Under the pieces are notes generated by a model. That model searched no databases. It was not told the origin of the DNA and was given only the letters and a program-made list of their open reading frames with translations. This document shows, piece after piece, positions 2,615-39,737 of a DNA stretch of 64,000 nt. Position 1 is the stretch's first letter, and every line of letters starts with the position of its first letter. The translations under genes were made by a program, and so were the position numbers. Source of the stretch: Candidatus Daviesbacteria bacterium (GTDB lineage: Bacteria; Patescibacteriota; Microgenomatia; Daviesbacterales; UBA10151); contig JACPZA010000031.1 in the NCBI GenBank assembly GCA_016195715.1, forward strand, positions 60,336 through 124,335, read 5' to 3'.

Positions 2615-3286
2615 ATGGGAACAGAATCTGCCGCACCAATCATCATTCATACTACTCCTTTACCTGAAAATAAGGGTATACTACCTTCTCAGTATCCAAA
2701 ATCTTTTCCCAAAATACTTTTTATAGTTTTAATTTTAATTATCATAGCTGAGTTAATTTGGGGAGCTTGGTATATTTTCAGACCCCTTCAAAAAAGAATA
2801 AACTCAAGTCCACAAAACAGTTTGGTGACCAAATTACCTAAGTCTACTGCTTCCATTAAACTTTCATCTATAAATCCTAGCGTATCAGTTGGAGATAAAC
2901 TGTCTGTGGATATTAATTTAAGTTCAAAAAACACCCCTTCAGATGGAGTGGATATAGTCATTAAATATGATCCTAACTTTCTTAGGGTTGAAGGTAAAAA
3001 TGAGGAAGTTTTTATCAAAGGTAGTGTTTTTCCAGAATACCTAGGTTACAAGGTTGATAATAAACTGGGAGTGTTGCGTATTTCTGGGATTAGTGAGGTT
3101 ACATCAGCTCCGGCAATTGCCCAGGGATTGTTTGGGACGGTTAATTTTAAAGCTGTCAATCAGGGAACAACTCAAGTGGTGGTGGATTTTAAGCCAGGAA
3201 ATACTACTGATTCTAACGTCATTGATAGTAAGTCAAATAAAGATATTCTTGACAAAGTGAGCAACCTTTCAGTTAAGATTAATTAG
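2615..3286 (+). CDS. Membrane-anchored cohesin-like domain protein
   Basis: An N-terminal TM helix (ILFIVLILIIIAELIWGAWYIF) is followed by a beta-sandwich-like domain with cohesin-type strands (DIVIKYDPNFLRVEG...GSVFP...LFGTVNFKAVNQGTTQVVVDF). Confidence 0.4.
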   Translation: MGTESAAPIIIHTTPLPENKGILPSQYPKSFPKILFIVLILIIIAELIWGAWYIFRPLQKRINSSPQNSLVTKLPKSTASIKLSSINPSVSVGDKLSVDINLSSKNTPSDGVDIVIKYDPNFLRVEGKNEEVFIKGSVFPEYLGYKVDNKLGVLRISGISEVTSAPAIAQGLFGTVNFKAVNQGTTQVVVDFKPGNTTDSNVIDSKSNKDILDKVSNLSVKIN

Positions 3287-4057
3287 ATGATTAAAAAAAT
3301 TATCGGACTTTTGGCTTTAATTGTTTTTTTAGTTACTCCATCAAGCGCACTTGCAGTTGGAGCAACTTTGTCACTTAATCCTTCCAGTTCAACTGTCAAT
3401 AAAGGTTGCAGTTTTTCTGTTGGGATTGACTTAGATACTGGAGGTAATAATACCGATGGGACTGATGTAATTTTAAAATTTGACCCAACTATTTTAACAG
3501 CTGGAGCAATTACTCAAGGTTCAGTTTATCCTGATTATCCTGGCAAATCAACAGATAACTCAGCCGGGACAGTCACTATTTCTGGACTAGCGTCAGTAAC
3601 CACCCCATTTAATGGTAGTGGCAGATTTGCTGATGTCAGTTTTACAGTTAACCCCAACGCTTCTCAATCAGTTGCTCAGATAAATTTTGATTTTGATCCC
3701 TCTAATAAAACAAATTCCCGGGATTCAAATGTGGTTCAATCAGTTAACGTGGTGGATATTTTAAATTCAGTTACTAATGGTAGTTATACAATTGCTAGTG
3801 GTGCTTGTTCAACTACAGCTACCTCTACACCTACCCCTACTCCAGTTCCTGGTGGTGGCGGAGTAATTGGTGCTTCTACCCCAACCCCTACTCCATTTGG
3901 TTTTATAAATGGAGTTCCAAAAGGTGGATTAATTGCTAGTGGCTCAGGTAATAACAACACTTTGCCTCCAGCTGGAGTTTCTGGACCAACCTTAGCGCTG
4001 TCTATTGTTGGTGTGTTTTTAGTAATTGGTGGAATACTGGGTTTAGCTTTACTTTAA
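3287..4057 (+). CDS. Cohesin-like domain protein with PT/Gly linker and C-terminal LPPAG + TM anchor
   Basis: A signal peptide precedes a cohesin-like core (VILKFDPTILTAG..GSVYPDYPG..GRFADVSFTVNPNAS). Then come a TPTPTPVPGGGG linker and a C-terminal 'LPPAG' followed by a ~25-aa hydrophobic segment ending the protein. The start is adjacent to the upstream stop (TAGATG). Confidence 0.45.
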   Translation: MIKKIIGLLALIVFLVTPSSALAVGATLSLNPSSSTVNKGCSFSVGIDLDTGGNNTDGTDVILKFDPTILTAGAITQGSVYPDYPGKSTDNSAGTVTISGLASVTTPFNGSGRFADVSFTVNPNASQSVAQINFDFDPSNKTNSRDSNVVQSVNVVDILNSVTNGSYTIASGACSTTATSTPTPTPVPGGGGVIGASTPTPTPFGFINGVPKGGLIASGSGNNNTLPPAGVSGPTLALSIVGVFLVIGGILGLALL

Positions 4058-6374: not shown

Positions 6375-9017
6375 GTGAGTATTGTGAAAATAATGAAGAA
6401 ATTATCTCAGTCGGGGTTTGCTGGAATTTTAGGGCTTTTTAGCTTACTGATTGTGATTATGGGTATTTTAGCTGGGGTTTACTTAGTTAAAAATTATTCA
6501 ACTAATCCAAAGACCCAAGCGACAGGTGAAACTATTAAATTTGTTGATGACCAAGGAAATACTATTAACTCAACCACCTCAAATATAGTTAAAGTTTCGC
6601 TAACTGCTCCAGTTTGGTCAGCTACGTCTAGCAGTTTTTTGAAATTAATTCCTAATTTGTCTTTAATCAAAGATGCCCAAGCTGCAACTTTATATACAGT
6701 TTCAGGAAAACTCTATGATCAAAAAACTAATCAAGGAATTGGAGCAGGATTAACAATTGAAACTTGTGCTGATCCAAGTTTTAGAAGTAACCCCAAAGTA
6801 AGTTCTGATGGGACTTTTAGTTTCCAAGTTAGGGATAAAGAAACTTATTGTGTCAGGGCTCCACAAGTTTCAGGTTACAGTCTTAGTGGAACTTGTTGTT
6901 ATGAGTGGCAAATTGCCAATATTAATTGCCAGACAAGCTCAGATCCAGTTTGTGGAGGTTCATCAGATGAATCATCAGGTGCTAAAGAGCAAGATAGGTC
7001 AACTGACTCTGGTTTTAATTTTGCTTATCAAGCAAGTGGCAATAGCGGAGGGGGCGGAAGTGGTGATTCTGGCAAAGTAAAAGTTTCTGGAAAGGCTTAC
7101 GACAAAGCTACCAATAAACCAGTTGGAGTTGGACTAACTGTGGCAACTTGTGGTGGTGCAAAAAGGGATCCAGTTATTCAATCTGATGGCAGCTTTCAAT
7201 TTAAAGTTGATCAAGGCGGACTATTTTGTGTCAGAGCACCTGATGTTTCAAGATACACTAACAACTGCTGTTATGAGTGGCAAATTGCTGGGGTAGATTG
7301 TGCAGCTCATCCTAAAAGTGCTGATTGTCAGCAAGGTGATGCTAAGACCATGGACCAAAGTACAGATAGCAACTACAATATAATATACACCTCAAAAACC
7401 AAACCTACCCCAACACCTAATCCCCAAACAAAATCAGTAGTTTTAGCTGAAGATCCAAACTTTACTATTAATTCTAAAACTCTAGATTTTACAACCAGTC
7501 CAATAAGTTATACTTTTTCTGATTCAACTCCAGGTTTAAAAGTTTTATATGCTAAATTTATTGCAATTGATGGTAGAGTTCAAAACGCTTCACCCTTCCC
7601 TGCTCAAATTCAATTGATCAATGCGTCTAGCAAACCTAATATTATAGTTGTTATGACAGATGATCAAACTCTACAATCAATGGCTTATCTTCCAAAAGTT
7701 AACTCATTAATTCGTGATCAGGGTAGCGAATTTACCAATTTCTTTGTTTCTAGCTCACTTTGTTGTCCATCCCGCTCGGAATTTTTAACCGGTCAATATG
7801 CCCACAATAATGGAGTTATCTCAAATCAACCTCCAAACGGTGGTTATGACAAGCTAGATAATACCAATACTTTAGCAGTCTGGTTAAAAAATTCAGGTTA
7901 TTATACCGGACTAGTTGGCAAATATTTAAATGGTTTTGGTAATGCTAAAAATGCTGATCCCAAAGCTCTCCCACCTGGCTGGAGCGATTTTCATGGCGGT
8001 TGGGGTCAATCATTTTATAGTAGTTATTTTAACTATACTTTGGATGAAAATGGTAAATTAGTTGATTATAAAGATGATGGTGTAACTGATAATAGCTACA
8101 TGACTAATGTCTTAACCCAAAGGGCGGTTGATTTTATAAATGGCCGTAAAAATGATTCTAATCCTTTCTTTCTTTGGTTAACTTATTTTACCCCTCACGA
8201 AGATGCCTCAGTTGATGGGCCAACTCCAGCTAGAAAATACCAGGGTAAGTTTGCTAGTGAGCCTCTTCCAAAGCCTGCTAGCTTTAACGAAGCAGATGTT
8301 TCTGACAAACCCCAGATGGTCCAAGATTTTGCGCTGCTTAATTCATCAGACATCTCTCATATCACCAATCACTACCGTCATACCCTGGAAGCTTTGCAAT
8401 CTGTAGATGATGGAGTTGAAACACTAATTAATACCCTCCAAACTGCTGGTAAACTTGAGAATACAATTATTATGTTCACCTCAGACAATGGTTACTTTAA
8501 TGGAGAGCACAGAAAGCCCAAGGGTAAATCAATGCTTTATGAAAACTCGATTCATTTACCACTTTTAGTTTCTGGTCCAGGAATTCCTCATCAAAGCATT
8601 GATCGAGCAGTTGTAAACATTGATTTTGCACCAACCATTGTAGATTTTAGCGGCGCAACTGCTAAAAGAACTATGGATGGAATGTCTTTTAGAGGTTTAA
8701 TTGCCAGCCCGGCTATTTCATGGAGGGATAGTTTCTTATTAGATGGTCCAGAGAATGAATATACCGCTGTTAGAACAAAGCAATATATCTATGCCGAGCA
8801 TACCTCAGGAGGTAAGAATCCAAATGAGTTATATGATTTATTTAGTGACCCAGACGAGCTGACTAATTTAATGTATACTAACTCCAAAAGCCTAAACCAA
8901 GGATTGGTAACTATGCTCCATCAACTCAAAACTTGCAATGGTTCAAACTGTAATGTTCCCTTAGCCTCTGGATTGTTGCCTTGGACTAGTTCAACCAGTT
9001 CTGCAGGATTGAAATAA
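6375..9017 (+). CDS. Secreted/anchored fusion: N-terminal TM or pilin-like leader, 2x Cys-rich 'CCYEWQ' modules (paralogous to ORF 595) and a C-terminal sulfatase catalytic domain
   Basis: Sulfatase signature: IIVVMTDDQ...SSSLCCPSRSEFLTGQY (C-x-P-x-R formylglycine motif), with ...FTSDNGY..GEHR..KGK downstream. The upstream modules align with 595..2565 (VSGKAYDKATNKPVGVGLTVATCG..CCYEWQIAGVDC). Confidence 0.75.
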   Translation: MSIVKIMKKLSQSGFAGILGLFSLLIVIMGILAGVYLVKNYSTNPKTQATGETIKFVDDQGNTINSTTSNIVKVSLTAPVWSATSSSFLKLIPNLSLIKDAQAATLYTVSGKLYDQKTNQGIGAGLTIETCADPSFRSNPKVSSDGTFSFQVRDKETYCVRAPQVSGYSLSGTCCYEWQIANINCQTSSDPVCGGSSDESSGAKEQDRSTDSGFNFAYQASGNSGGGGSGDSGKVKVSGKAYDKATNKPVGVGLTVATCGGAKRDPVIQSDGSFQFKVDQGGLFCVRAPDVSRYTNNCCYEWQIAGVDCAAHPKSADCQQGDAKTMDQSTDSNYNIIYTSKTKPTPTPNPQTKSVVLAEDPNFTINSKTLDFTTSPISYTFSDSTPGLKVLYAKFIAIDGRVQNASPFPAQIQLINASSKPNIIVVMTDDQTLQSMAYLPKVNSLIRDQGSEFTNFFVSSSLCCPSRSEFLTGQYAHNNGVISNQPPNGGYDKLDNTNTLAVWLKNSGYYTGLVGKYLNGFGNAKNADPKALPPGWSDFHGGWGQSFYSSYFNYTLDENGKLVDYKDDGVTDNSYMTNVLTQRAVDFINGRKNDSNPFFLWLTYFTPHEDASVDGPTPARKYQGKFASEPLPKPASFNEADVSDKPQMVQDFALLNSSDISHITNHYRHTLEALQSVDDGVETLINTLQTAGKLENTIIMFTSDNGYFNGEHRKPKGKSMLYENSIHLPLLVSGPGIPHQSIDRAVVNIDFAPTIVDFSGATAKRTMDGMSFRGLIASPAISWRDSFLLDGPENEYTAVRTKQYIYAEHTSGGKNPNELYDLFSDPDELTNLMYTNSKSLNQGLVTMLHQLKTCNGSNCNVPLASGLLPWTSSTSSAGLK

Positions 9018-9094: not shown

Positions 9095-11650
9095 ATGTTT
9101 CTGTCCAAATTTAAAAAGCAGCTTGCTGTTTTTTTAAAAAATCAACAAGGTGCAATTCCGCTTTTGGTGCTAGTGGCAGTTTTAGGGCTAGTGGCTTTTT
9201 TGGCTATCTCTTCAACTTTTTCTTTTAGAAATAGTATTTTTTCTAGACTTTTTCCTAAACCCCCCTCTCATGCTGCAAGCAAAAATGGTCCAGTTCAAAG
9301 CATCTATACTCCTGATAATTATGGAGTTAATTATTTTGGTTTTTCAAGTGATGATACCATCCGTGGACAACAACTTGATTTAATCAAGCAAACTGGTGCC
9401 AAATGGGTACGAGGAGTGACCTGTCAATGGCAAAGTATTCAATGGGATCAAAATATGTACAGCAGCAACTTATGGAATTTTGCTGCATGCGATAAAATAG
9501 TCAATGAAATAGTTTCTCGAGGTATGACCCCGCTAATGGCACTCTGGTATTCTTCAAATTCCTGTACCACTGCTCCTTCTAATCCAATTACCCAAATTTC
9601 AGGTTACCCACCCTGTGATAATCAGAAGTTTCATGATTATGTTTATCGAGTGGTCAGCCGTTATGGATCCAATGCCAATGGCATTGTCCCTGATAAAAAT
9701 GACACAGCAGCATATGGACAAAACAAGGTGCATTTTTATGAGCTTGGTAATGAGCCAAACAGACAAAATGCATTTCCGATTGCTGATGGACTTGGTGGGA
9801 CCTATGATGCTACTAATGAGCCAGCCCACCTAGCAGCTAACACTTATGTCTCTCTTTTAAATACTGCCCATGATGCCATCAAAGGATCATCAGGGGCAGA
9901 TGCTGGTTCAAATCTGGTGGTGGCATCAATAAATGCTGGTAATGTTATTGTCCCTAGAACAGATTTCTTAACTGATGTTATAAAGGGCGCTGGGAATAAT
10001 ATTGATATCATGAACCTGCATGTCTATGGTGATCAAAAAAGTTTTGACACCTCGCTATCTCAAGCAAAGCAGGCATATGTAGATGCAGGTATAGCAGAAA
10101 AACCTTATTGGGTGACAGAGAATGGTTATGCTAGTGACTCAACCTTTAAAAGTTTCCCCTTCCCCAGCACTGAACCAGATTTTTATTGCCCAACTGGAAC
10201 TTGTTATCAGCAGCAAGCCAATTATATCAATGAAATGATTCCTTATATGTTCAATTCTGGCGTTTCAAAAGTATTTTGGTTTGCTAGTGTTGATGATCCC
10301 CAAAGCACCAGTCCTGGGTATTGTACTGATAGTTTGATGTATTACCCTGGTTATCAATGTAATCAGAATGGTCCTGCACCATCCTCTGTACCTTTAACCC
10401 AAAAAGATCCTGGGTTTACTGCCTACAAAAATTTAGTTGCCAAGCCAGACCCATTACCTCCAATTACCAGCATGGTTTCTCCAGTAGATGGATCTAGTAT
10501 TTCTGGTGCACTTACTATTTCAGCCACAGCTACAGATAATGTTGGGGTAACTAAAGTGGAGTTTTATGTTGACGGAGGAGATAATAAGGGAGGAACTGGA
10601 CCCTATAAAACTATGACTGCCCCAACCTCAGGCAGCACCTATTCTAATGACCAAAATACATTTACTTTAGTTCAGGGTTCAACCCATACTCTTTATGTTA
10701 AAGCTTATGATGCTGCCGGAAATTTTGCCCAATCTAATACTATCTCCTTTAAAGTAACTGACACTACTGCTCCAGCTGTATCTATTACCTATCCTGCCAG
10801 TTCTACCCCTCCTCTTTCTGGAGGAACAACCATTACAGCTACAGCTACAGATAATATTGCTATAGCTCATGTAGATTTTTATATTGATGGGGCACTTTTA
10901 AGCTCTGATAAAAATCCAGATAGTGGGACAAATAATTATTCAGCATTCTGGGGTTCTGGTACTTTACCTCAAGGTTCAATCCACACCATTTATGCAATAG
11001 CTTATGACACTGCTGCTACCCCAAACCAAACTACCTCCCAAACAATTACAGTCACTACTAATGATTCCTCTAAACCAGTAGTTAGCAATATAGTTCCAAC
11101 CAATTTAGCAACCATCAATTCTGGAATTATAGCTGTTTCTGCTACTGCCACAGATAATGTTGGGGTAACTAAAGTTGAGTTCTGGCAAGACTCAGATTCT
11201 GCACCTTTTGCTACAGATACATCTGCCCCCTACTCTGCTAGTTGGGATGCGACTAATTTAAGTCAAGGAGTTCAACACACTCTAACAGTTAAAGCTTACG
11301 ATGCCCAGGGAAACATTGGTAGTGGAACTTCCAAAGTAACTTTTATTGATACTACAAAGCCAGTAATTTCTAACTTACTACCAGTTAATGGTACTGTTGT
11401 TACTCTGAATGTGACTGTTAATCTTCAAGCTACAGCTACAGATAATGTCAAAATAAAAAATGTGACCTTCTCGGTGGATGGAACTCAGAAATGCTCTGTC
11501 GGATATTCCTCCGCTGTCAATGATGTTTACACCTGCTCTAATTGGAAACCAACTCTAAAATCCCATACTTATAATATTTCAGTGACAGCTAATGACACAG
11601 CCTCCTCAACCAATAGCACAACTAGTACGTATACTTTAAAAACATTATAA
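9095..11650 (+). CDS. Glycoside hydrolase, clan GH-A (GH5-like) catalytic domain + 4 bacterial Ig-like repeats + conserved C-terminal domain
   Basis: The catalytic acid/base motif YELGNEPN and the nucleophile motif WVTENGY are present. Repeats of the type ATATDNVGVTKVEFYVDG (Big-like) follow. There is an N-terminal TM or pilin-like leader. Confidence 0.65.
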   Translation: MFLSKFKKQLAVFLKNQQGAIPLLVLVAVLGLVAFLAISSTFSFRNSIFSRLFPKPPSHAASKNGPVQSIYTPDNYGVNYFGFSSDDTIRGQQLDLIKQTGAKWVRGVTCQWQSIQWDQNMYSSNLWNFAACDKIVNEIVSRGMTPLMALWYSSNSCTTAPSNPITQISGYPPCDNQKFHDYVYRVVSRYGSNANGIVPDKNDTAAYGQNKVHFYELGNEPNRQNAFPIADGLGGTYDATNEPAHLAANTYVSLLNTAHDAIKGSSGADAGSNLVVASINAGNVIVPRTDFLTDVIKGAGNNIDIMNLHVYGDQKSFDTSLSQAKQAYVDAGIAEKPYWVTENGYASDSTFKSFPFPSTEPDFYCPTGTCYQQQANYINEMIPYMFNSGVSKVFWFASVDDPQSTSPGYCTDSLMYYPGYQCNQNGPAPSSVPLTQKDPGFTAYKNLVAKPDPLPPITSMVSPVDGSSISGALTISATATDNVGVTKVEFYVDGGDNKGGTGPYKTMTAPTSGSTYSNDQNTFTLVQGSTHTLYVKAYDAAGNFAQSNTISFKVTDTTAPAVSITYPASSTPPLSGGTTITATATDNIAIAHVDFYIDGALLSSDKNPDSGTNNYSAFWGSGTLPQGSIHTIYAIAYDTAATPNQTTSQTITVTTNDSSKPVVSNIVPTNLATINSGIIAVSATATDNVGVTKVEFWQDSDSAPFATDTSAPYSASWDATNLSQGVQHTLTVKAYDAQGNIGSGTSKVTFIDTTKPVISNLLPVNGTVVTLNVTVNLQATATDNVKIKNVTFSVDGTQKCSVGYSSAVNDVYTCSNWKPTLKSHTYNISVTANDTASSTNSTTSTYTLKTL

Positions 11651-11664: not shown

Positions 11665-13836
11665 ATGCTTAAATTATTAGACCAAAAAGGTGCTATTCCA
11701 CTACTAATACTGATTGCTGGGGTTGGGTTAATTGTTTTTTTAATTATTTCTGCAACTTTTTCCTTCAGGAATCAAACCTTCCAAACTCTTTTTCCCAAAC
11801 CCTCCTCTAAAGCTGCAACACTCTATGGGCCAGATAACTATGGTGTTAATACTGGTATAGCTTTATCTGAAGCAGCTATGCCAGATGTCATGGCAAAAGA
11901 GCATGCTGCAAATATCGGTTGGATTAGATTACTTTGCAATTGGGATAGTATCCAAGCTTCTGATCCAGGACCTGTGCCAAACCCTCCCACTGGTTTAAGT
12001 AATTTTAAATTTAACTCATGCGATGCAAATATGACCAATGTTAAAAATAATTCTTTGCAACCTTTACTTGGATTTTATTATGCTTCAGCATGGTGCAATA
12101 CTGGTGGAGTTGGTTTATCTCAACAAGAAAAGTCTGCTCCTTGTGATTACAATAAATTCTATGACTTTGTTTATCATTTAGTGGCCAGGTATGGATATAC
12201 TGAACACTCTGATTTAAGCCTAACCAAAGCTAATGGTTATGCCCAAGGGATAGTTAAATATTGGGAGATTGGTAATGAACCAGATGCAGACTCTCAACTT
12301 GCTCCAGGTGGAACTGCAATTGAAATTTCTAATAATTATGCTCATATTTTACAAACTGCCCATGATGCTATTAAAGCAGCAGATCCTAATGCTAAGATTT
12401 TAATTGGGGGTTTGGTCATTCAGAGTAAGGCAGACCCAACTTTTTTCCAGGATCTGTTAAACAATACTACCTATCCCAATACCAAAAATAACTTTGATAT
12501 TGGAAACTTTCATACTTATGGAATTAAAACAGAAGCCCAATCTAAGATGAATGAAGTTAGAAATGATTTAGCAGCAGTTGGAGTAACTAAAGATACTTGG
12601 GTAACAGAGAATGGTTATCCTTCTAATCTTGCTCAACAAAATCTCCTATCTGATGCCAGGCTAGAAGCTAATTATGGAACAGATGTGCAAGGTCAAGTTA
12701 ATTATATGAATGATTTAAGGCCTTATATTTTAAAAGACTTGGGAGCTAAAAAAGTCTTTTGGTATACCAGTTTAGATGACCCTTCAGACAGTACTTCTTT
12801 TTGCAGCCATGGTTTATTTTATTACAATGGTTACCAGTGCAACCAAGCAGTTTTGCCATCTCCTGCTCCTGTAGAAACTGCTAAACCTGCTTTTGATACT
12901 TATAAAAATATTATTGCTGGAACTGATACCACTCTTCCAACTGTTTCAATGAGTCCTCTTCCTCAATATGTAACTGGCAATGTAACTTTAACAGCCAATG
13001 CTTCAGATAATATTTGGGTTTATAAAGTGGAGATTTATGTTGATGGCATAATGCAAACTGATAATAGTGGCAATCCAGATTTTTATGCACCATTTACAGA
13101 TTCTTGGCCTACAGGAACTTTAGTTCAAGGAAGCAGTCATTCTATTTATGCCAAAGCTTATGATGAAAATTTTAATATGACCCAATCTGCTCCTATCACC
13201 ACAGTTATCCAAGACACTAGTAACCCCACTATTTCTATTAACTCGCCAGTTGGAGGAAGTACTGTGACTGGAATAGTTCCTATAAGTACAACATCTTCTG
13301 ATAATGTTGGAGTAACTAAGGTAGAATTTTATTTGGATAGTTCCACCACCCCTTTTGCAACTAATTCTAACCCTTCCCCTGCTCCTTCACCTACCACTTT
13401 TAATACCACTGCTAATTGGAATTCAACCACCTTACCTCCAGACCAGCAAGGTATTTACCACACAATAGCTGTTAAAGCTTATGATGCTTATGGAAATATA
13501 AGTTTACAGCCCTCAGTCAGGGTGAAATTAGCTGATACCACTAAACCTACTTTGAGCAATTTGCTGCCTATAAATGGGACAATTATTACTGTTGGTATTT
13601 ATGCAACTTTGCAGGCTACAGCTACAGATAATGTAAGAATACTTAATGTGACCTTTTCAATTGATGGAACGCAACAGTGCTCAAAGGGTTACAGTACTGC
13701 AATCAATGATGTTTACAGTTGTACAAACTGGAAGCCAACTTTACACAACCATACCTATACTATTTCAGTTACAGCTAATGACACAGCTTCACCAGCCAAC
13801 AGCACTACTCAAACTTTTACCCTAAAAACTTTATAA
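11665..13836 (+). CDS. Glycoside hydrolase, clan GH-A (GH5-like), tandem paralog of 9095..11650
   Basis: WEIGNEPD and WVTENGY motifs are present, with Big-like repeats. The C-terminal ~100 aa are nearly identical to the upstream paralog (..LQATATDNV(K/R)I.NVTFS(V/I)DGTQ.CS.GYS.A(V/I)NDVY.C.NWKPTL..HTY.ISVTANDTAS..NSTT.T(Y/F)TLKTL). Confidence 0.65.
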   Translation: MLKLLDQKGAIPLLILIAGVGLIVFLIISATFSFRNQTFQTLFPKPSSKAATLYGPDNYGVNTGIALSEAAMPDVMAKEHAANIGWIRLLCNWDSIQASDPGPVPNPPTGLSNFKFNSCDANMTNVKNNSLQPLLGFYYASAWCNTGGVGLSQQEKSAPCDYNKFYDFVYHLVARYGYTEHSDLSLTKANGYAQGIVKYWEIGNEPDADSQLAPGGTAIEISNNYAHILQTAHDAIKAADPNAKILIGGLVIQSKADPTFFQDLLNNTTYPNTKNNFDIGNFHTYGIKTEAQSKMNEVRNDLAAVGVTKDTWVTENGYPSNLAQQNLLSDARLEANYGTDVQGQVNYMNDLRPYILKDLGAKKVFWYTSLDDPSDSTSFCSHGLFYYNGYQCNQAVLPSPAPVETAKPAFDTYKNIIAGTDTTLPTVSMSPLPQYVTGNVTLTANASDNIWVYKVEIYVDGIMQTDNSGNPDFYAPFTDSWPTGTLVQGSSHSIYAKAYDENFNMTQSAPITTVIQDTSNPTISINSPVGGSTVTGIVPISTTSSDNVGVTKVEFYLDSSTTPFATNSNPSPAPSPTTFNTTANWNSTTLPPDQQGIYHTIAVKAYDAYGNISLQPSVRVKLADTTKPTLSNLLPINGTIITVGIYATLQATATDNVRILNVTFSIDGTQQCSKGYSTAINDVYSCTNWKPTLHNHTYTISVTANDTASPANSTTQTFTLKTL

Positions 13837-16717: not shown

Positions 16718-17368
16718 TTATCCATTTATAACAATACCTCTTTGTGCAAAGAATTTTTTAAAATCTGAGAAAAAAATTTCAGTATTTGGTTTGGTAAATT
16801 TTGTATCACCAGATGGGTTGTGAATATAAAAAACTTTTTTATTAAAATCAAATCCAGTGATTAAAACTAAATGACCACCACTGCCTATTTTGGTTGGGTT
16901 ACTTTGAGGATTTCGGATTTGAGAACTAACTGATGCAATTACATAATTTTTGTTAACTAAGTTTTCAATGATTTCTTCTAAAACCATTGGTGAGATAATT
17001 TTTCCTTCTAAATTAAATTCTTTATAAATAAAATTTAAAAATGGTTTGTAAAATAAACCATCTAAGCCATCTGGACTGCTTTTATTTTCAATAAAACCCC
17101 CATACTCAATGCATTTTTCACCAAGTTTAAAAATGGGAATGTTTTTATTTAATTTATGAACTAGAATCATTTTCAAACAAGCCATCCCACAACCATTCTT
17201 GCTCCAAAGTTCTTTTTCTTTTTGAGTTTTTGCTCCAGTATCACCTTGTTTAAAGTAAGGGATATTAATTAAGTTGGAATTTATAGAAGGATTATAGAAA
17301 AAATACCTAAACTTTTTGCTAAATAAAATTAAATGCCAAAGTAGCTTTCTGAAGTTATGTATTTCCAT
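16718..17368 (-). CDS. Papain-like cysteine peptidase domain protein (peptidase C39-like)
   Basis: A Cys motif (NGCGMACLKMIL) and a downstream His motif (GGHLVLITGFD) fit the C39_2 fold pattern. The assignment is not certain. Confidence 0.4.
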   Translation of the reverse strand: MEIHNFRKLLWHLILFSKKFRYFFYNPSINSNLINIPYFKQGDTGAKTQKEKELWSKNGCGMACLKMILVHKLNKNIPIFKLGEKCIEYGGFIENKSSPDGLDGLFYKPFLNFIYKEFNLEGKIISPMVLEEIIENLVNKNYVIASVSSQIRNPQSNPTKIGSGGHLVLITGFDFNKKVFYIHNPSGDTKFTKPNTEIFFSDFKKFFAQRGIVING

Positions 17369-25795: not shown

Positions 25796-27499
25796 ATGGC
25801 GCTAGCTGCTCAAACGATTGAAGAAATTTTGCTTAAACAAGGTTATTTACGTCCTGATCAAGTCTCAGCTATTAAGCTTGAAAGTATTAATTCTGGTCAA
25901 CCTTCGGAAAAAATTATCAGAGAACACAACTTTGCCACGGCAGAACAAGTGGCTCAAGCCCTCTCAATATTACTTGGGGTGCCATTTATCAAGTTAGAAA
26001 ATAAAGCCATTTCCACAGAAGTTTTAAATTTAATTCCTGAAGCTGTGGCAAAGCATTACCAACTAATCCCCTTTGATCGTCAGCTGGATAGGTTATCAGT
26101 AGCTATGGTTGATCCACTGGATTTACAAGTCATTCAATTTATTGAGAAAAAATCCGGACTTAAAGTTATTCCTTTTTTAGGCTATACCGAAGATATTTTA
26201 AAAGCTATCTCCAGCCAGTATTCTCAAAACCTAACCTCTGAAGTCACCTCAGCTCTAAAAGAAGTTTCTGAACTGCAGCGAGCAAATGCCCCTCAAGAGT
26301 CGATTGATCAAGCAGAAGTAATCCGCGAAGCACCAGTTTCCAATATTGTTACCCAACTTTTGGAGTATGCAGTTAAGACCCGAGCTTCAGATATTCATAT
26401 TGAACCTCAAGAAAATCAAACTAGAGTTAGATATAGAATTGATGGAATTTTGCACGAAAAAGTTATTTTACCTAAAAAAGTTCACGAAGCAGTTGTTTCT
26501 CGAGTTAAAATTTTATCAAATTTAAAAATTGATGAACGAAGGTTACCGCAAGATGGTAGGTTTACTTTTGAGTTTGCTGGAGCAGAGATTGATTTGCGTA
26601 TCTCCACTCTGCCGACAGTTTTTGGAGAAAAAGTAGTATTAAGATTGCTGCCAAAATCTGCTCAAGCACCCTCACTGACTGATTTAGGACTGCGTGGCAG
26701 TTCTCTAAAAACCCTAGAAACTCAACTCCTTCGTACCCATGGAATTATTTTAATCTGTGGCCCAACAGGTTCAGGTAAAACCACCACTTTATATTCAGTT
26801 TTATCGAAACTTTCAACAACAAAAGTAAATATTTTAACAATTGAAGATCCGGTTGAGTATGAAATTCCTGGAGCAAATCAAGTTCAAGTTAATCCCCAAA
26901 TTGGCTTAACCTTTGCCTCAGCTCTGCGGTCTTTTTTGCGCCAAGACCCAAATATTATCCTGGTTGGAGAGATTCGAGATACTGAAACTGCAGAGTTGGC
27001 TATTCAAGCTGCACTAACTGGTCACCAAGTTTTTTCTACACTACATACTAATACTGCATCAGGCGCTCTGCCTAGAATGCTAGACATGGGAACTGAGCCA
27101 TTTTTACTAGCTTCAGCTGTGAACGGAATAGCTGGGCAGAGAATTTTGCGAAAAATTTGTGAGCATTGTCGGGTTTCATTTACTCCTCCACCTGAGGTGA
27201 TTGAAAATATTAAAGTTACCTTAGGAAATCTAATCTCAACTAACAAACCAATCCAGCTTTACAAAGGTCAGGGTTGTAATTTTTGTAATCACTCTGGTTA
27301 TTTAGGACGGACAGGAATTTATGAAGTTTTATCAGTTTCAGAAAAAATTATGAAATTAATTTTAGAGCGAGCTTCATCCGTTGCTATTGAAGAACAAGCC
27401 GTATCTGAAGGGATGATTACTTTAAAACAAGATGGCTATTTAAAAGTTTTAGAAGGGGTGACCACTTTTGAGGAAGTTTTGCGTGTAGCCCAAGATTAA
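25796..27499 (+). CDS. pilB: Type IV pilus assembly ATPase PilB (GspE family)
   Basis: There is an N-terminal GSPII_E N-domain. Walker A LICGPTGSGKTTTLYS, the Asp/His boxes and a tetracysteine motif (CEHC..CNFC) are present. Confidence 0.9.
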   Translation: MALAAQTIEEILLKQGYLRPDQVSAIKLESINSGQPSEKIIREHNFATAEQVAQALSILLGVPFIKLENKAISTEVLNLIPEAVAKHYQLIPFDRQLDRLSVAMVDPLDLQVIQFIEKKSGLKVIPFLGYTEDILKAISSQYSQNLTSEVTSALKEVSELQRANAPQESIDQAEVIREAPVSNIVTQLLEYAVKTRASDIHIEPQENQTRVRYRIDGILHEKVILPKKVHEAVVSRVKILSNLKIDERRLPQDGRFTFEFAGAEIDLRISTLPTVFGEKVVLRLLPKSAQAPSLTDLGLRGSSLKTLETQLLRTHGIILICGPTGSGKTTTLYSVLSKLSTTKVNILTIEDPVEYEIPGANQVQVNPQIGLTFASALRSFLRQDPNIILVGEIRDTETAELAIQAALTGHQVFSTLHTNTASGALPRMLDMGTEPFLLASAVNGIAGQRILRKICEHCRVSFTPPPEVIENIKVTLGNLISTNKPIQLYKGQGCNFCNHSGYLGRTGIYEVLSVSEKIMKLILERASSVAIEEQAVSEGMITLKQDGYLKVLEGVTTFEEVLRVAQD

Positions 27500-27502
27500 T
27501 TT

Positions 27503-28576
27503 ATGAATATTCAACAACTACTTGACTTAACAATTGGCTCAAATGCTTCTGATTTACACCTTTTGGTGGGCTCTCCACCAACTTTAAGAATTGATGGAAA
27601 TTTAGCACCAATTAACGGTATGAATGTAATTTCTCAATCTGATTTTGAGAGTTTGGTTTTTGCGCTAATTTCTCCTTACCAAAAAGATCTTTTTTTGAGA
27701 GAATGGGAACTTGATTTAGGTTTTGATTTTGCTGGTAAAGCCAGGTTTAGGGTCAATATTTATAAACAAAGAGGAGCACTAGCCGCATCGCTTCGACTTA
27801 TACCCAAAACTATTCGATCTATTGAAGAGACCGGTTTACCGCCAATAGTTTCTAAATTAACCGAGCTTGAACAAGGTTTAGTTTTGGTGACTGGCCCAAC
27901 AGGTCATGGCAAATCCACAACTTTAGCTGCCTTAATTAATCAAATTAACAAAACCCGCTCAGTCCATATCTTAACTATTGAAGATCCAATTGAGTTTGTT
28001 TATCCAGAAGGTAAAGCTCTGATCTCTCAACGAGAACTAAACTCTGATACTAAAGCTTGGAATAACGCCCTAAAGTCTGCTTTAAGAGAAGATCCAGATG
28101 TAGTGTTAATTGGTGAGATGAGAGACTATGAAACAATTGCTTCAGCCATGACTATTGCTGAAACTGGACATTTAGTATTGGCAACGCTGCACACTAACTC
28201 TGCCTCTCAAAGTATTGATCGTATTATTGACGTTTTTCCTGAAAATCAACAACCTCAAATTCGCTCTCAGCTGGCTGAGGTGATTGAAGCAATTATCTCC
28301 CAGCGTTTAATCCCCACGATTAATCCTGGACGAGTTTTAGCAGCTGAGTTACTTTTTGCAGTCCCAGCTCTGCGAGCTATTATTCGGGAGGGAAAAAATC
28401 ACCTAATTGATAATTTAATTCAAACCTCAGCTGAAGCTGGAATGATTGGTTTGGAAACGTCTCTCGCGACATTAGTTCGGGAGGGATTAATTACTTCGGA
28501 GGTAGCTTTAAATTATGCTCTTAAACCGCAATTACTTAACAAATTTTTAGGTACTGATACTACTTCTTCAGCTTAA
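27503..28576 (+). CDS. pilT: Twitching motility ATPase PilT
   Basis: Walker A VLVTGPTGHGKSTTLAALI is present. Length is 357 aa, with the AIRNLIRE-like motif AIIREGK. Confidence 0.9.
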   Translation: MNIQQLLDLTIGSNASDLHLLVGSPPTLRIDGNLAPINGMNVISQSDFESLVFALISPYQKDLFLREWELDLGFDFAGKARFRVNIYKQRGALAASLRLIPKTIRSIEETGLPPIVSKLTELEQGLVLVTGPTGHGKSTTLAALINQINKTRSVHILTIEDPIEFVYPEGKALISQRELNSDTKAWNNALKSALREDPDVVLIGEMRDYETIASAMTIAETGHLVLATLHTNSASQSIDRIIDVFPENQQPQIRSQLAEVIEAIISQRLIPTINPGRVLAAELLFAVPALRAIIREGKNHLIDNLIQTSAEAGMIGLETSLATLVREGLITSEVALNYALKPQLLNKFLGTDTTSSA

Positions 28577-28579
28577 AAT

Positions 28580-29788
28580 ATGCCAGTTTACAATTATATT
28601 GCTAAAGATCTCAGCGGAGTTGAGCATAAAGGTACGATTGAAACCGCAGACGAACACAGCGTCAGTCGAATTTTAAGTAAAAAATCCCTGATTGTTATCT
28701 CAATCAAAGAAAAAAAAGGTAACGCTGCCAATATTTTAAATAAATTTTTAAACAAAATCTCCTTTACCCAAATTGTGATTATTACCAGGCAACTTGCCAC
28801 TATGATTGAAGCAGGTTTAGTTTTGTCTGAGGCACTAGATATCTTAGAAAGCCAGCAATCTAATAAAAAACTCAAAGACATTTTAGGAGAAGTTTCCAGA
28901 GATGTTAAATCTGGTTTAGATTTAGCTTCGGCTTTAAGGAAACATCCAGATGCTTTTCCAGCACTTTACTGTAATTTAATCAAAGCTGGTGAGTCATCAG
29001 GTAAATTAGATGATGTTTTGTTACAAATGGCGACCAGTTTAGAAAAAGATCGAGAGTTTAGAAGTCGTATCCGAGGTGCGATGATTTATCCAATTGTTAT
29101 CTCGATAATGATGGTTTTAGTTGGAGGAGTAATGATCTTTTTTGTCATCCCAAAACTAACTTCGCTTTATACTCAATCTAATATTGAACTTCCCCTGCCT
29201 ACTAAAATTTTGATTGGTACTTCTAACTTTTTTCTAGGATATTGGTGGATGATTTTAATTTTTATAGTTGTTGGAGGAATTGCTTTTAGAAGATGGACCA
29301 GCACTCCTTCAGGCAAATATATTTTTGATAGGCTTTTACTTAGAATTCCAGTAGTAAGTAAAATTATCGAAGGAACATCTTTAACTAATTTTACTCGGAC
29401 TTTTGGATTACTAATTGCTTCGGGTATACCAATTTTAGATTCGTTGGTGATTGTTAAAGATGTGATGGGAAATGCGGTTTACAAAAAAGCTATCGAAACT
29501 AGTGCTCAAGGGGTAGAGCGAGGTTTACTTTTCTCAACTCAACTTGAGCAGATAGGAATTTTTCCCAGGATTGTTCCGCAGATGTTTCGGGTTGGTGAAG
29601 AAACTGGCAAAGTTGATGATATCGCTTTTAAATTATCAGATTATTTTGAATCCGAGTCAGACCATTTGGTTAAAAATTTAACTGTTATTATTGAACCAGT
29701 AATTTTAGTAATTTTAGGTATCGGAGTAGGTTTTTTAGTTTTATCCATTATTCTGCCAATTTACAAACTAACCAATTCGTTCTCGTAA
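28580..29788 (+). CDS. pilC: Type IV pilus platform protein PilC (GspF family)
   Basis: Two GspF repeats, three TM segments and a length of 402 aa. Confidence 0.9.
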   Translation: MPVYNYIAKDLSGVEHKGTIETADEHSVSRILSKKSLIVISIKEKKGNAANILNKFLNKISFTQIVIITRQLATMIEAGLVLSEALDILESQQSNKKLKDILGEVSRDVKSGLDLASALRKHPDAFPALYCNLIKAGESSGKLDDVLLQMATSLEKDREFRSRIRGAMIYPIVISIMMVLVGGVMIFFVIPKLTSLYTQSNIELPLPTKILIGTSNFFLGYWWMILIFIVVGGIAFRRWTSTPSGKYIFDRLLLRIPVVSKIIEGTSLTNFTRTFGLLIASGIPILDSLVIVKDVMGNAVYKKAIETSAQGVERGLLFSTQLEQIGIFPRIVPQMFRVGEETGKVDDIAFKLSDYFESESDHLVKNLTVIIEPVILVILGIGVGFLVLSIILPIYKLTNSFS

Positions 29789-29879
29789 AGTATAAGTTTA
29801 ACCACTTGACTGAGTGTTAACCATTGTGTCTAAAATAAGGTTAGAGATAAAACTCTAAATTTTAAGGAGGTGAGATAGT

Positions 29880-30452
29880 TTGAGAAAATCTGCCCAAATC
29901 CGATTAAATCGGACCCAAGGGTTTACGTTAGTTGAACTCTTAGTAGTCATTGCAATTATTGCTATATTAGCAGCTGTGGTAGTCTTAATCATTAATCCAC
30001 TGGAATTAACTAGAAGAGGTCGGGATGCTGCTAGATTAACTGATTTATCTAATTTACAACAAGCCATTAATGTAGCTGTTCAAGAAGCCACTAACTCTGG
30101 CTCTCAGATTCTGTGTAATGGTGCTGCGTATCCTTGTTTTGGTAACTCTTCTACAGGTGGTAGAGGTGCGGATGGAACAGGTTGGGTGAAAGTTAATCTT
30201 GGCTCGCAACAAAGTGTATCAGTCCCAACTTTACCAGTTGATCCAGTTAACTCAACAGGCGCAGCAGGTTATCATTATGTTTACTGTGCTGATAAACCAT
30301 CAGGTTCACTTGATGGATGGGAGATAGATACTAAGCTTGAGTCTGCTCAGCAAAGTCCGAAGATGCTGCAGGATGGTGGAGATGATAGCAATCTTTACGA
30401 AACTGGTTCTAATTTATTGCTAGTTGGCGTTTCCACAGGATGTACGTATTAA
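29880..30452 (+). CDS. Type IV pilin (candidate major pilin), prepilin leader ...NRTQG|FTLVELLVV
   Basis: A TTG start with a strong SD (AAGGAGGTGA) 7 nt upstream. A class III signal with Gly-1, Phe+1 and Glu+5 is present. A C-terminal Cys pair is present. Confidence 0.8.
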   Translation: MRKSAQIRLNRTQGFTLVELLVVIAIIAILAAVVVLIINPLELTRRGRDAARLTDLSNLQQAINVAVQEATNSGSQILCNGAAYPCFGNSSTGGRGADGTGWVKVNLGSQQSVSVPTLPVDPVNSTGAAGYHYVYCADKPSGSLDGWEIDTKLESAQQSPKMLQDGGDDSNLYETGSNLLLVGVSTGCTY

Positions 30453-30458
30453 TTTGGG

Positions 30459-31367
30459 ATGGAAATATTTAGCCTAGGTTTTATATTTGGAGCGATACTG
30501 GGAAGTTTTACAAAAGCACTGGCTGATAGATCTTTGACTAAAGTATCGTTTTTTGGAAGGTCGTATTGTAATCATTGTCAAAAACAATTGGTTTGGTACG
30601 ACCTTTTTCCAATTATTTCTTACCTACTTATTAAAGGTAAGTGCCGCTACTGCAAAAAAGCTATTCCGCTTGAGTATTTATTAGTTGAAGTTTTAATGGG
30701 GGTTTTAATAGCTTGGCTTTTTTTACAAATTATCCCAACCACTTTTTTAACTTTATCCCCTATCAGCCAAAGTTTAAAAATTATTGAGGTTATCTTTAAA
30801 TCTTTTGTTTTGCTAGTTTTAGTTAGTGTTTTTTTAACAGATATCAAAAAAGGTCTAATTCCTGATCGGATTACCTACCCTGCTGTAATGATTACTTTTA
30901 TATATTTGGTGGCATTAACGATTTATAAATCAGTTATTTTATATTTTTATTTAAAAAACAATACTTTTGGAAAATTTCTTCTCCCCCCTCATTCGGACTA
31001 TTTTTTTAGGCATGTCCTCTACTCCGCTGATCCATTGATTTCCGGGGTATTGTCTGCGCTAGGGTTAGGGTTATTCTTTGGCTTAATAATTATTTTGACA
31101 AAAGGCAGAGGTATGGGTGGTGGAGATTTAAAATTAGCTATTTTTATGGGGCTGACACTAGGCTTTCCTAGTAGTCTAGTTGCTATAATTTTAGCTTTTT
31201 TATCTGGTTCAATAGTTGGTTTAGTTTTGCTGGTTATAAAGATAAAACGTTTTGGTCAAACCATTCCCTTTGGGCCTTTTCTAGCGCTGGGATCTATCAT
31301 GGCACTTTTTTGGGGGCAGCAAATTTATGATTGGTATTTGAATTTTTCAAAAGGGTCAATATTTTAA
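30459..31367 (+). CDS. pilD: Prepilin peptidase PilD (A24 family)
   Basis: The N-terminal zinc-binding CxxC..CxxC (CNHCQKQL..CRYCKKAI) is followed by a polytopic membrane domain with the conserved Asp-containing GGGDLKL motif. Confidence 0.85.
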   Translation: MEIFSLGFIFGAILGSFTKALADRSLTKVSFFGRSYCNHCQKQLVWYDLFPIISYLLIKGKCRYCKKAIPLEYLLVEVLMGVLIAWLFLQIIPTTFLTLSPISQSLKIIEVIFKSFVLLVLVSVFLTDIKKGLIPDRITYPAVMITFIYLVALTIYKSVILYFYLKNNTFGKFLLPPHSDYFFRHVLYSADPLISGVLSALGLGLFFGLIIILTKGRGMGGGDLKLAIFMGLTLGFPSSLVAIILAFLSGSIVGLVLLVIKIKRFGQTIPFGPFLALGSIMALFWGQQIYDWYLNFSKGSIF

Positions 31368-31461
31368 AATTTAGTAGCTAAATTGGGGTATTGACAGCTT
31401 AAAAAAAAGATGTAAGAGTAGATATATAAGAGAAAAATAAATTTAAGAAATTTTTCAGAAA

Positions 31462-31935
31462 ATGCTAACCCAACTGCCCAAACAATTTAAATCATCCAAA
31501 GGTTTCACATTAGTAGAGTTGTTAGTTGTAATTGCAATTATTGCTATATTAGCAACTGTTGGTTTGGTAATTTTCAGTGGTCAACAAAAAAATGCTCGAG
31601 ATTCAAAAAGAAAATCTGATATAGATGCTATCGCAACTGCTTTAGAAAATGGCAAAACTCCAGGCGGAACTAGTTATAATGGTCTAGCAATTAATCAGTT
31701 TGTTCAAAATGCAGTTCCACTTGACCCGGGAAGTAATGGAGCTGTAAATGCACAATATAGCTATACAGGATCTGCTGTGGCTGCTCCAAGCTGGGATAAT
31801 ACAACTCAAATAAATCCCACTGGTTGGAGTACAGTCGGTGTAGGTACAGGAGCAGGTGCAACAGCTTGGACTGTTTGTGCTCATTTAGAAACATCAACAA
31901 CTGCAGTATATTGTAAGTCAAATGCGCAAAGTTAA
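31462..31935 (+). CDS. Type IV pilin paralog 1
   Basis: The leader is ..SSKG|FTLVELLVVIAIIAIL. The motif GQQKNARDSKRKSDIDAI is shared with neighbouring paralogs. There is a C-terminal disulfide loop (C..C). Confidence 0.8.
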   Translation: MLTQLPKQFKSSKGFTLVELLVVIAIIAILATVGLVIFSGQQKNARDSKRKSDIDAIATALENGKTPGGTSYNGLAINQFVQNAVPLDPGSNGAVNAQYSYTGSAVAAPSWDNTTQINPTGWSTVGVGTGAGATAWTVCAHLETSTTAVYCKSNAQS

Positions 31936-31969
31936 AACTATGTATATAAAATCTATAAATAGTACAAAA

Positions 31970-32563
31970 ATGAATTTTAGCAGAGGCTTTACGTTAGTAG
32001 AATTAATGGTAGTCATTGCAATTATTGCCATCTTAGCTGCTATAGCAATTACAGTTTTTAGTGGTCAACAAAAAAATGCCAGAGATTCACAAAGAAGAGC
32101 TAATATAGATGCGATAGCTAATGCACTAGAGAGTAAAAAAGGGTCAAACGCAACATATCAGATCATATCTAGTAGTGATTTTACTTCACAAACTTTTCCA
32201 ACAGATCCAGGCTATGCAGGAGAACCCTCAAGGTATAGTATTTGTTACAATAAGACATCAGGTTCATCATTAGCACAAAATATTAGTCCAAATACAACTA
32301 CTGCAGCAAGCAGATTAGGTGGATGGCCAACAGGACATGCAGGTCCTACTGGTGCTACAGCTAATTCGACTTGTAAGGATGGAACAATAACTGATGGTCC
32401 CTTAGCTAACGCTAATGATTGGCCTCAAGTGGATACTGTCGTAACTACTGCGGCATTCTTTACTAGTGGTTTAGGTACATTTAACTGGGCAATTTGTGCT
32501 AAGCTAGAAGGAGCTGCTGGGACTCAAGCATCGCCATATTATTGTAGGACTAACAGCCAGTGA
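31970..32563 (+). CDS. Type IV pilin paralog 2 (start chosen at internal Met giving leader MNFSRG|FTLVEL)
   Basis: The track ORF starts at 31922 and overlaps the previous gene. The Met at 31970 gives a canonical short prepilin leader. The shared motif GQQKNARDSQRRANIDAI is present. Confidence 0.7.
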   Translation: MNFSRGFTLVELMVVIAIIAILAAIAITVFSGQQKNARDSQRRANIDAIANALESKKGSNATYQIISSSDFTSQTFPTDPGYAGEPSRYSICYNKTSGSSLAQNISPNTTTAASRLGGWPTGHAGPTGATANSTCKDGTITDGPLANANDWPQVDTVVTTAAFFTSGLGTFNWAICAKLEGAAGTQASPYYCRTNSQ

Positions 32564-32579
32564 AGAAAGGAAGTAAAAA

Positions 32580-33080: not shown

Positions 33081-33150
33081 TTTCCCTGATCCTCTCTTTT
33101 TTACTAATTTCACTTTATTTCTCATCAACTAATGTGATACATTAAATTTA

Positions 33151-33642: not shown

Positions 33643-33643
33643 T

Positions 33644-34099: not shown

Positions 34100-34133
34100 A
34101 ATTACTTCTTTTACTAGTGACTAGCAAGCTAAA

Positions 34134-35229: not shown

Positions 35230-35238
35230 TTACAAATT

Positions 35239-37728: not shown

Positions 37729-37745
37729 CTTAAAATAAAAACAAA

Positions 37746-39575: not shown

Positions 39576-39737
39576 AGAGCTAGTTGCTAGAATCTTGAAT
39601 CTAGTTATACAATCAATTAGGAGTTATGAATTTAAAATTAAGAATTAAGCATCTAAAACAGAAGAAAGGTGGTGATAGTCAATTTGGCTGTAGAAATAGT
39701 TAAACAGATAAAGATTGTCCAAATTGACTAAAGTCCC

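Follow-up and report, generated by a model that had tools for sequence, protein, structure and literature searches.

Why do predicted extracellular enzymes of a candidate-phyla bacterium begin like pilins, and what does this say about their export? Candidate-phyla bacteria depend on what sits on or outside their tiny cells, and their secretion signals are poorly charted. The question is raised by a stretch of 64,000 nucleotides of DNA from Candidatus Daviesbacteria, one of the Microgenomates in the candidate phyla radiation (contig JACPZA010000031.1, positions 60,336 to 124,335 of the forward strand), the whole of which is referred to below as the window. A preliminary description had noted pilin-like N-termini in two glycoside hydrolase (GH5)-like enzymes (open reading frames, ORFs, 9095 and 11665), a sulfatase fusion (ORF 6375), and a 'pilus tip-like' protein (ORF 37746), and had raised the possibility that the hydrolases are substrates of the prepilin peptidase PilD and are displayed on pilus-like fibres. 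All four N-termini are present as they were quoted, and each has a short basic leader ending in Gly, followed by 20-25 uncharged residues, with no Glu at +5. The observation is much broader than was then stated, since the leader has a conserved second half (..FSFKDKLF..LFPKPxSxA) and a third, Gly-less leader gene lies at 63260. As an N-terminal module, the leader is conserved and transferable. It is read here, with a probability of about 0.45, as a lineage-specific, modular, bipartite, chimeric, and unusually long export leader of Daviesbacteria that would be cleavable.

Identification and extent of the leader family

ORF 9095 (9095-11650, plus strand, 851 amino acids, aa) begins with MFLSKFKKQLAVFLKNQQG|AIPLLVLVA, the bar following the Gly, and positions 9095-9200 are its first 35 codons. 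Its leader (9095-9274, plus strand, aa 1-60) consists of the n-region MFLSKFKKQLAVFLKNQQ with Gly19 at 9149-9151, an uncharged tract (AIPLL..TFSF), the segment RNSIFSRLF, and PKPPSHA, which ends in Ala60 (9272-9274). ORF 11665 (11665-13836, plus strand, 723 aa) begins with MLKLLDQKG|AIPLLILIA, and its leader (11665-11814, plus strand, aa 1-50) reads MLKLLDQKG(9)|AIPLLILIAGVGLIVFLIISATFSF-RNQTFQTLF-PKPSSKA(50). The ORF 11665 product is 100% identical to an NCBI protein of Candidatus Daviesbacteria whose gene lies on a 128,664-bp contig. The earlier assignment of both as GH5-like enzymes was confirmed, for ORF 11665 by Pfam (Glyco_hydro_53, 1.9e-9; Cellulase (GH5), 2.6e-6; three Big_7 domains), which makes it a GH53/GH5-like glycoside hydrolase, and for ORF 9095 as its paralog. 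ORF 9095 (P0003) has four Big_7 immunoglobulin domains and no direct glycoside hydrolase (GH) match, and is 36% identical to ORF 11665 across 92% of its length; by this identity it is a leader-bearing paralog of the GH5/GH53-like protein.

A leader profile of 58 positions was built from six leaders and searched against 1.84 billion representative proteins, which gave matches in 602 clusters at E<=1e-3 and in 255 at E<=1e-10. The 150 best matches listed all begin within the first ~30 residues and all lie within the first ~75. Against the leader hidden Markov model (HMM), ORF 9095 scored 85.4 bits (E 3e-26) and ORF 11665 scored 81.3 bits. The pattern was first apparent among homologs of ORF 11665, where the identical type of N-terminus was carried by S8 peptidases (P0016, P0019) and an NHL-repeat protein (P0032). 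The leader is a modular N-terminus of ~50 residues, which in ORFs 9095 and 11665 follows x-N-Q-K-G|AIPLLILLAAvGLIxFLLISNTFSF-KDKLFSxLF-PKPxSxA; the family consensus is x-N-Q-K-G-[AVIF]-[AIV]-[PH]-[IL]-L-x-L-x-A-A-x-G-L-I-x-F-L-L-I-S-N-T-F-x-F-K-D-x-L-F-S-x-L-[FY]-P-K-P-x-S-x-A.

An alignment of 154 leaders had Gly10 in 153/153, Gln/Glu8 in 143, and Pro/His13 in 148. Near the distal end, Lys46, with conserved Pro45 and Pro47 on either side, and Ser/Thr49 were each found in 153 of the 154 leaders and Ala51 in all of them (154/154). Residues at position 50 vary (H, Q, K, F, Y, N), those listed for position 52 are A/S/Q/V/E/T, with no Pro, and information content drops sharply past position 52. 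The residue at +3 after the Gly is Pro in 111 leaders and His in 37 (window examples, 9149-9160 and 11689-11700); such an alternation is unusual at the cytoplasmic end of a hydrophobic tract and occurs neither in Gly-less leaders nor in the PilX-like family described below.

A second sample, independent of the Gly, was obtained by scanning metagenome contigs with a degenerate DNA pattern for F-x4-F-x2-L-[FY]-P-K-P-x-S-x-A. The leaders found by this C-terminal motif, together with those of earlier loci, amounted to 65 distinct leaders, a design that avoids profile bias. Gly is present in ~47 of the 65, Ala in 1, and neither in ~16.

The family includes variants of the full leader, two of which are in the window: the Gly-less form in ORF 63260 and a shortened form in ORF 6375. 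The leader of ORF 63260 (63260-63397, plus strand) reads MPKNKNTR|LTLLVVALGLIIFVLTSFFFQF-KKPPFSFLY-PKPPSKA(46) and matched the leader HMM with E 1.6e-13 at model positions 9-48 only. This ORF extends past the window end, and its part within the window (63260-64000) ends in a dockerin-like sequence, ..IDLNGDGRVN. ORF 6375 (6375-9017, plus strand, 880 aa) is a sulfatase fusion in which an N-terminal Cys-rich repeat region precedes the sulfatase domain (Pfam: Sulfatase, 2.2e-48; SGSH_C, 1.7e-16), and its N-terminus is ..KKLSQSG|FAGILGLFSLLIV. The leader (6375-6521, plus strand, aa 1-49; ..KKLSQSG(14)|FAGILGLFSLLIVIMGILAGVYLV-KNYSTNPKTQA(49)) was undetected by the main leader HMM; it is a short divergent variant, S-Q-S-G|FAG..GVYLV..NPKTQA|TGE, without the FSFKDKLF segment. 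Leaders of this 'G..GVYL..PK[AT]' class also occur in P0008 and at loci L004, L011, and L078. The T-Q-A of the sulfatase leader probably corresponds to S-x-A, because the domain that comes next (..IKFVDDQGNTI..) directly follows S-x-A in the full-leader proteins P0075, P0100, and P0115. The N-terminal half of the sulfatase fusion and ORF 595-2565 each contain two copies of a Cys-rich module (..VSGKAYD..ATCG..CCYEWQIAG[IV][ND]C..), which is ~100 aa long and for which Pfam gave only a weak CarboxypepD_reg-like match.

The leader is attached to many unrelated extracellular enzymes and to cohesin/dockerin proteins. Pfam analysis of 78 full-length members gave Big_7 (25), Peptidase_S8 with a fervidolysin-type prodomain (20), Dockerin_1 (9), and Cohesin (4), as well as several carbohydrate-binding modules, GH5, GHL15, Glyco_hydro_cc, Sulfatase, M11, and purple acid phosphatase. 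Since the passengers are diverse and extracellular, the leader is a general-purpose tag of extracellular proteins. Tandem arrays of leader genes occur, with as many as 4 in a locus of 12-20 kb.

All leader sources that have a name are Candidatus Daviesbacteria, and a related-locus search with the first leader alignment returned 9 genome loci only. Leader genes of the Daviesbacteria type were also seen on contigs of metagenome-assembled genomes titled 'uncultured Gammaproteobacteria' (L002, L004, L005, L006, L007), labels that are probably placeholders or errors. Two leader genes (L042, L073) lie on one metagenome contig of 1,023,025 bp (Ga0209514_10000005), probably a near-complete genome. Searches of the isolated N-termini against Pfam and NCBIfam gave noise only, even at E<=10, with no N_methyl, PilX_N, or YSIRK-type model; a word-indexed protein search with a 100-sequence leader alignment gave no matches, and literature searches turned up no description of the Daviesbacteria leader.

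Similarity of the front end to PilX/GspK-type signals

The comparison partner of the leader within the window is ORF 37746 (37746-39575, plus strand, 609 aa), a PilX/GspK-type minor-pilin-like large subunit with a choice_anch_R domain, which begins with MKKLLNQKG|QMFILGT. The protein earlier called pilus tip-like is simply a PilX-type minor-pilin-like subunit, a pilus component of a known kind. Its N-terminus is 29% identical (E 2e-6) to that of a PilX_N minor-pilin-like protein encoded at 35847-36734 (plus strand; MKNQTG|QVIIILL.., no Glu5), which matched PF14341 (PilX_N) with 25.5 bits over its full length and 29.8 bits over its N-terminus. The 37746 protein had 411 homologs with the consensus N-terminus N-Q-[SKR]-G|Q-[IVM]-[LF]-[VI]-L; the Gly is present in 116/116 N-termini of this family and Q/E at -2 in 94/116.

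Alignment of the leader with the N-termini of the 37746 family by hhalign gave a probability of 82% (E 1e-5, score 27.6, 33 columns), against 4.7% with the canonical pilins of the window. Null scores were 9.3 ± 2.0 (maximum 15.6) for shuffled columns and 12.6 ± 2.4 (maximum 19.0) for shuffled blocks. The bulk of the signal came from N-Q-x-G and the first nine hydrophobic residues, which alone scored 20.3 (probability 91%). The resemblance to a class III (prepilin-type) signal claimed in the preliminary description is real and specific, as N-Q-x-G and the hydrophobic start match PilX/GspK-like N-termini. At the level of sequence, the first ~14-33 residues of the leader are specifically similar to a class III-type signal of the PilX/GspK-like kind, and by the same comparison the front end is a PilX/GspK-type signal, not the canonical GFTLxE pilin signal. 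Absence of the Q-K-G motif from relatives had been named as a point that would refute the earlier proposal; the motif is present in most homologs.

These comparisons bear on the simplest alternative, that the leaders are ordinary signal peptides whose pilin look comes by chance from a basic n-region with a final Gly. Short motifs such as K-G ahead of a hydrophobic stretch arise easily, and other secreted proteins of the window use plain signal peptides. Chance is nevertheless contradicted by the conservation of a 50-residue leader position by position across hundreds of clusters and by a match that is significant with PilX-like N-termini and not with canonical pilins or shuffles; the leader is also much longer than a normal signal peptide (PMC6579943). 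We consider this explanation very improbable.

A weightier alternative is a true class III signal. In such a signal, a hydrophilic leader whose last residue is Gly precedes ~21 residues that are mainly hydrophobic (PMC8179133; PMC4471445); for cleavage by prepilin peptidase the Gly is critical and Glu5 is dispensable, and subunits without Glu5 can co-assemble (PMC4471445). The leader fits this minimal definition in ORF 9095 (Gly19), ORF 11665 (Gly9), and ORF 6375 (Gly14), with Gly9 also in ORF 37746, and 20-25 uncharged, mostly aliphatic residues follow the Gly. Under this explanation PilD would cut after the Gly, and the helix would be handled by the type IV pilus machinery like that of a PilX/GspK-type subunit, so that the enzyme would be placed at the pilus tip or in a surface assembly like the bindosome, or driven across the envelope, with P-K-P-x-S-x-A as a linker or a later release site. 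It is favoured by the N-Q-x-G that the leader has in common with the PilX-like family of the operon, and by the distribution of Gly at the boundary of n-region and hydrophobic stretch: every other window protein with such a Gly is a pilin-like protein of the pilus operon, and no ordinary secreted or anchored protein of the window has one. AlphaFold, applied to the isolated ORF 11665 leader with a shallow multiple sequence alignment (MSA) of 6 sequences, predicted a single helix at residues 7-42 with coil after P-K-P (pLDDT 74). This predicted 36-residue helix resembles a 'headless' pilin, of which Flp and Geobacter PilA-N are examples.

Architecture speaks against it. The +5 residue of the leader is Leu, and the isolated N-termini had no PF07963/TIGR02532/IPR012902-type match at E<=10, although the true pilins of the window do match N-terminal methylation models. 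There is no pilin head, as the predicted helix ends at P-K-P and no pilin module was matched by Pfam in the enzymes. PF14341 matched the 35847 protein only; the enzyme leaders have no match to it and no alpha1-C '..A.AEAG..' segment. Further, passengers of 500-1,600 aa, with many paralogs per genome, would compete for the tip position, and the invariance of S-x-A is unexplained if it is not cut.

A signal peptidase-like distal end

The last residues of the leader are an almost invariant F/Y-P-K-P-x-S-x-A. They follow the -3/-1 pattern of type I signal peptidase, with small residues at both positions, a free -2, and prolines upstream, and Pro at +1 after S-x-A was found in 0/65 of the sampled leaders. 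A stretch of 5-10 residues separates the Ala of S-x-A from the start of S8 prodomains, the sulfatase core, and GH domains. This spacing is the same as after ordinary signal peptides, for example in subtilisin and sulfatase precursors.

In the mechanism that we propose, the hydrophobic tract would act as a Sec/signal recognition particle-dependent signal-anchor that carries the passenger across the membrane, and the passenger would be released, or detached from the anchor, by a cut after S-x-A, the predicted type I signal peptidase site. The front end would have been borrowed from a minor-pilin-like gene, and the whole 50 residues would form a long specialised cleavable signal peptide. In Gly-type members, which are three quarters of the family and include both GH5-like enzymes, PilD could additionally trim the short n-region.

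Alternatively, the leader may be an uncleaved N-terminal anchor that makes the enzymes type II membrane proteins tethered at the surface, in which the F-rich segment and P-K-P-x-S-x-A would form a stalk or serve in docking, for example to the wall, an S-layer, or a glycosyltransferase. The uncharged tract of 20-25 residues is of transmembrane length, S-x-A lies at a distance from it, the helix is predicted to be continuous, and hydrolases kept at the surface would be sensible for an ultra-small symbiont or scavenger. Small residues invariant at -3 and -1, with a free -2 and no Pro at +1, are hard to explain without a peptidase, however, and conservation stops exactly at S-x-A, with no spacer before the catalytic domains; dockerin-bearing passengers, moreover, suggest attachment by other means. 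We regard a permanent anchor as unlikely, to the same degree as a true class III signal.

Several points weigh against the proposed cleavable leader. The invariance of S49 and A51 was measured on sets selected by profile or by motif. In a canonical signal peptide the h-region has 7-15 residues and the c-region 3-7 (PMC6579943), and the leader departs from these dimensions in both parts, since 20-25 uncharged residues are followed by 16-18 residues before the Ala of S-x-A; because the tract is long and S-x-A distant, the site might be out of reach of a canonical signal peptidase I. The F-rich segment after the membrane is not amphipathic, so there is no obvious interfacial helix, and the helix predicted by AlphaFold (shallow MSA, pLDDT 74) is continuous to residue 42. 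At the front, leaders that are otherwise more than 50% divergent keep Q/E at -3 and Gly at -1; because the Gly motif is conserved, common to the PilX-like proteins, and found in no non-pilus anchor protein of the window, it is presumably functional, most simply as a PilD site. A dedicated protease acting at S-x-A, or no cleavage there, is possible.

An amphipathic interfacial helix that returns S-x-A to the membrane was considered separately and rejected, the hydrophobic moment of the segment (muH 0.26) being equal to the shuffle mean.

Leaders without the glycine

The Gly-less leaders have an n-region of the form K-N-x-R|L.. and a tract three residues shorter, and keep the rest of the leader. 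Their passengers are S8 peptidases, metallopeptidases, propellers, and cohesin/dockerin proteins, as with the Gly-type leaders, and both types often occur on the same contigs. The idea that the two types carry different passengers was rejected, the kinds of passenger being alike. Since Gly-less members carry the same passengers, the PilD step cannot be the common, essential one, and obligatory PilD processing is not supported. The two are conserved n-region types that stand side by side in the same genomes, which suggests that the n-region is read by something, PilD being the obvious candidate; trimming by PilD at the Gly is plausible. The absence of the critical Gly from ~25% of the family, with the same passengers, speaks against a true class III signal.

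The pilus locus and the genomic context of leader genes

The type IV pilus locus of the preliminary description was confirmed at 25796-42023 (plus strand) by two T2SSE matches and matches for T2SSF, PilM, PilN, and PilO, along with about 10 GF[TS]LxE pilins. It encodes PilB, PilT, PilC, a major pilin, PilD, ~9 further GF[TS]LxE pilins, two PilX-like proteins, PilM, PilN, and PilO, which is a full set for a monoderm system. The PilD gene lies at 30459-31367 (plus strand), as had been stated; its product matched A24_N_bact (5.7e-25) and Peptidase_A24 (1.6e-10), and has a Cys-rich N-domain and the motif GGGDLKL. By these features PilD is apparently intact and a plausible candidate for the enzyme that would cut after the Gly, and its presence favours a class III signal. 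Two pilin-like ORFs of the locus, 34134-34727 and 34669-35229, overlap by ~59 nt. The latter (..LKLESG|QSLLEITVAL..) shares the +1 Gln of the PilX-like proteins, retains Glu5, and gave weak PilV and N_methyl matches.

The leader-bearing enzymes had been called adjacent to this locus, which is a loose description, as they are separated from it by ~12 kb of opposite-strand genes (gyrA, ddl, mur genes, alr, gyrB). In 80 other leader-gene loci (about 575 kb), no homologs of PilB, PilT, PilC, PilD, PilM, PilN, or PilO were found. That no pilus machinery stands near leader genes at these loci, and that in the window it is 12 kb off, beyond housekeeping genes, speaks further against a true class III signal, which we hold to be unlikely. 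No signal peptidase I gene was found near leader genes in 640 kb by phmmer with a B. subtilis SipS query and by S26 motifs, which is a weak negative.

Orphan GFTLxE pilin genes adjoin leader-enzyme genes far from pilus machinery, at L003 (18753-19430), at L006 (1659-2570), and at the contig ends of L038, L041, and L061, and some of the orphan pilins beside leader genes have long C-terminal extensions (225-303 aa). In three contexts (L003, L006, L038) among the 80 loci, such orphan genes are the only pilus-type genes near leader genes, and they count in favour of the class III explanation.

Display of the hydrolases on pilus-like fibres, as first proposed, is not supported by gene context or architecture, given ~16/65 Gly-less leaders, no pilin head, and no machinery in the 80 loci; display on pili is possible. 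A more elaborate scheme would make the leader a general secretion tag derived from a PilX/GspK-like tip signal: PilD would trim N-Q-x-G, the pilus machine would take up the headless helix instead of the ~600-aa tip subunit and extrude it, a cut at P-K-P-x-S-x-A would free the hydrolase away from the cell, and Gly-less paralogs would be membrane-retained or Sec-only. An ultra-small monoderm bacterium would then have a route resembling type II secretion or one of display at the pilus tip. We judge it still less likely than either a true class III signal or an uncleaved anchor, but above chance similarity.

Other genes of the window

There are signs of a cellulosome-like system. Near the start of the window, ORF 2615-3286 matched Cohesin with 26.6 bits (above the cutoff) and ORF 595-2565 gave a weak Dockerin_1 match; the dockerin-like end of ORF 63260 and the Dockerin_1 and Cohesin domains in 9 and 4 of the 78 leader-bearing proteins are further such signs. 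The neighbour of the cohesin-like ORF, at 3287-4057, encodes a secreted protein with a plain signal peptide and a C-terminal LPPAG followed by a hydrophobic tail (..LPPAGVSGPTLALSIVGVFLVIGGILGLALL), which may be a sortase-type C-terminal anchor. Among the opposite-strand genes, a Peptidase_C39_2-like protein (4.5e-14) is encoded at 16718-17368 (minus strand), between gyrA and the D-Ala-D-Ala ligase/mur genes.

Significance and comparison with known systems

At least 600 protein clusters, of secreted proteases, glycosidases, sulfatases, and cohesin/dockerin proteins, carry the leader. Because no domain library recognises it, it provides a direct handle on the Daviesbacteria exoproteome, and its unusual length may affect the classification of these proteins by standard tools. 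A PilX-type front joined to a signal peptidase-type end raises the question of whether bacterial prepilin peptidases process non-pilin enzymes. If PilD does process these enzymes, this would point to secretion or display by way of pili in monoderm bacteria; if it does not, the leaders would still form a class of long specialised signal peptides that is new and sharply defined.

Four known systems are comparable. YSIRK-G/S and KxYKxGKxW signals are long, lineage-specific Sec signal peptides that are cut by type I signal peptidase and in which a motif directs the secretion route or site. Like the leader, they combine a long signal with a conserved motif that numerous proteins of a single lineage, secreted or at the surface, have in common. 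The leader is unrelated to them in sequence, with no NCBIfam match of any kind, and its conserved parts include all of the h-region, 16 residues past the membrane, and the predicted cut site.

In archaeal bindosome substrates, as in the proteins described here, a prepilin-like signal is joined straight to a non-pilin soluble domain, and many passengers have one signal type. To our knowledge, prepilin-peptidase processing of non-pilin enzymes has so far been established only for these substrates. Bindosome signals, which belong to another domain of life, need a basic -2 residue, have been shown to be cut by PibD, and need dedicated assembly genes (Bas), whereas the Daviesbacteria leader has a second, signal peptidase I-like site and no linked dedicated assembly genes.

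Modular type IV pilins, such as S. sanguinis PilB/PilC, comprise more than 1,200 proteins in 264 architectures, with examples in candidate-phyla bacteria (PMC8179133), and resemble the leader proteins in that functional modules, including those of peptidase and glucanase type, are grafted behind a pilin-type N-terminus (PMC8179133). Their pilin module is complete, with the IPR012902 motif and Glu5, and the Daviesbacteria leader has neither the module and motif nor Glu5. As the leader lacks the IPR012902 motif and Glu5, the survey of modular pilins (PMC8179133) could not have found it.

Closest to the front end are the PilX_N/GspK-type minor pilins, which likewise have a short leader to Q/E-x-Gly, a small or aliphatic +1 residue, no Glu5, and a hydrophobic tract of ~21 residues. 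The Daviesbacteria leader differs from them in having no PF14341/N_methyl match, no alpha1-C '..LAEAG..' segment, and no pilin/GspK globular domain; its predicted helix ends at P-K-P-x-S-x-A, with the enzyme directly after, and a quarter of the family is Gly-less. The leader belongs with the known specialised signal peptides and class III-like signals, and is itself a previously undescribed member of that company.

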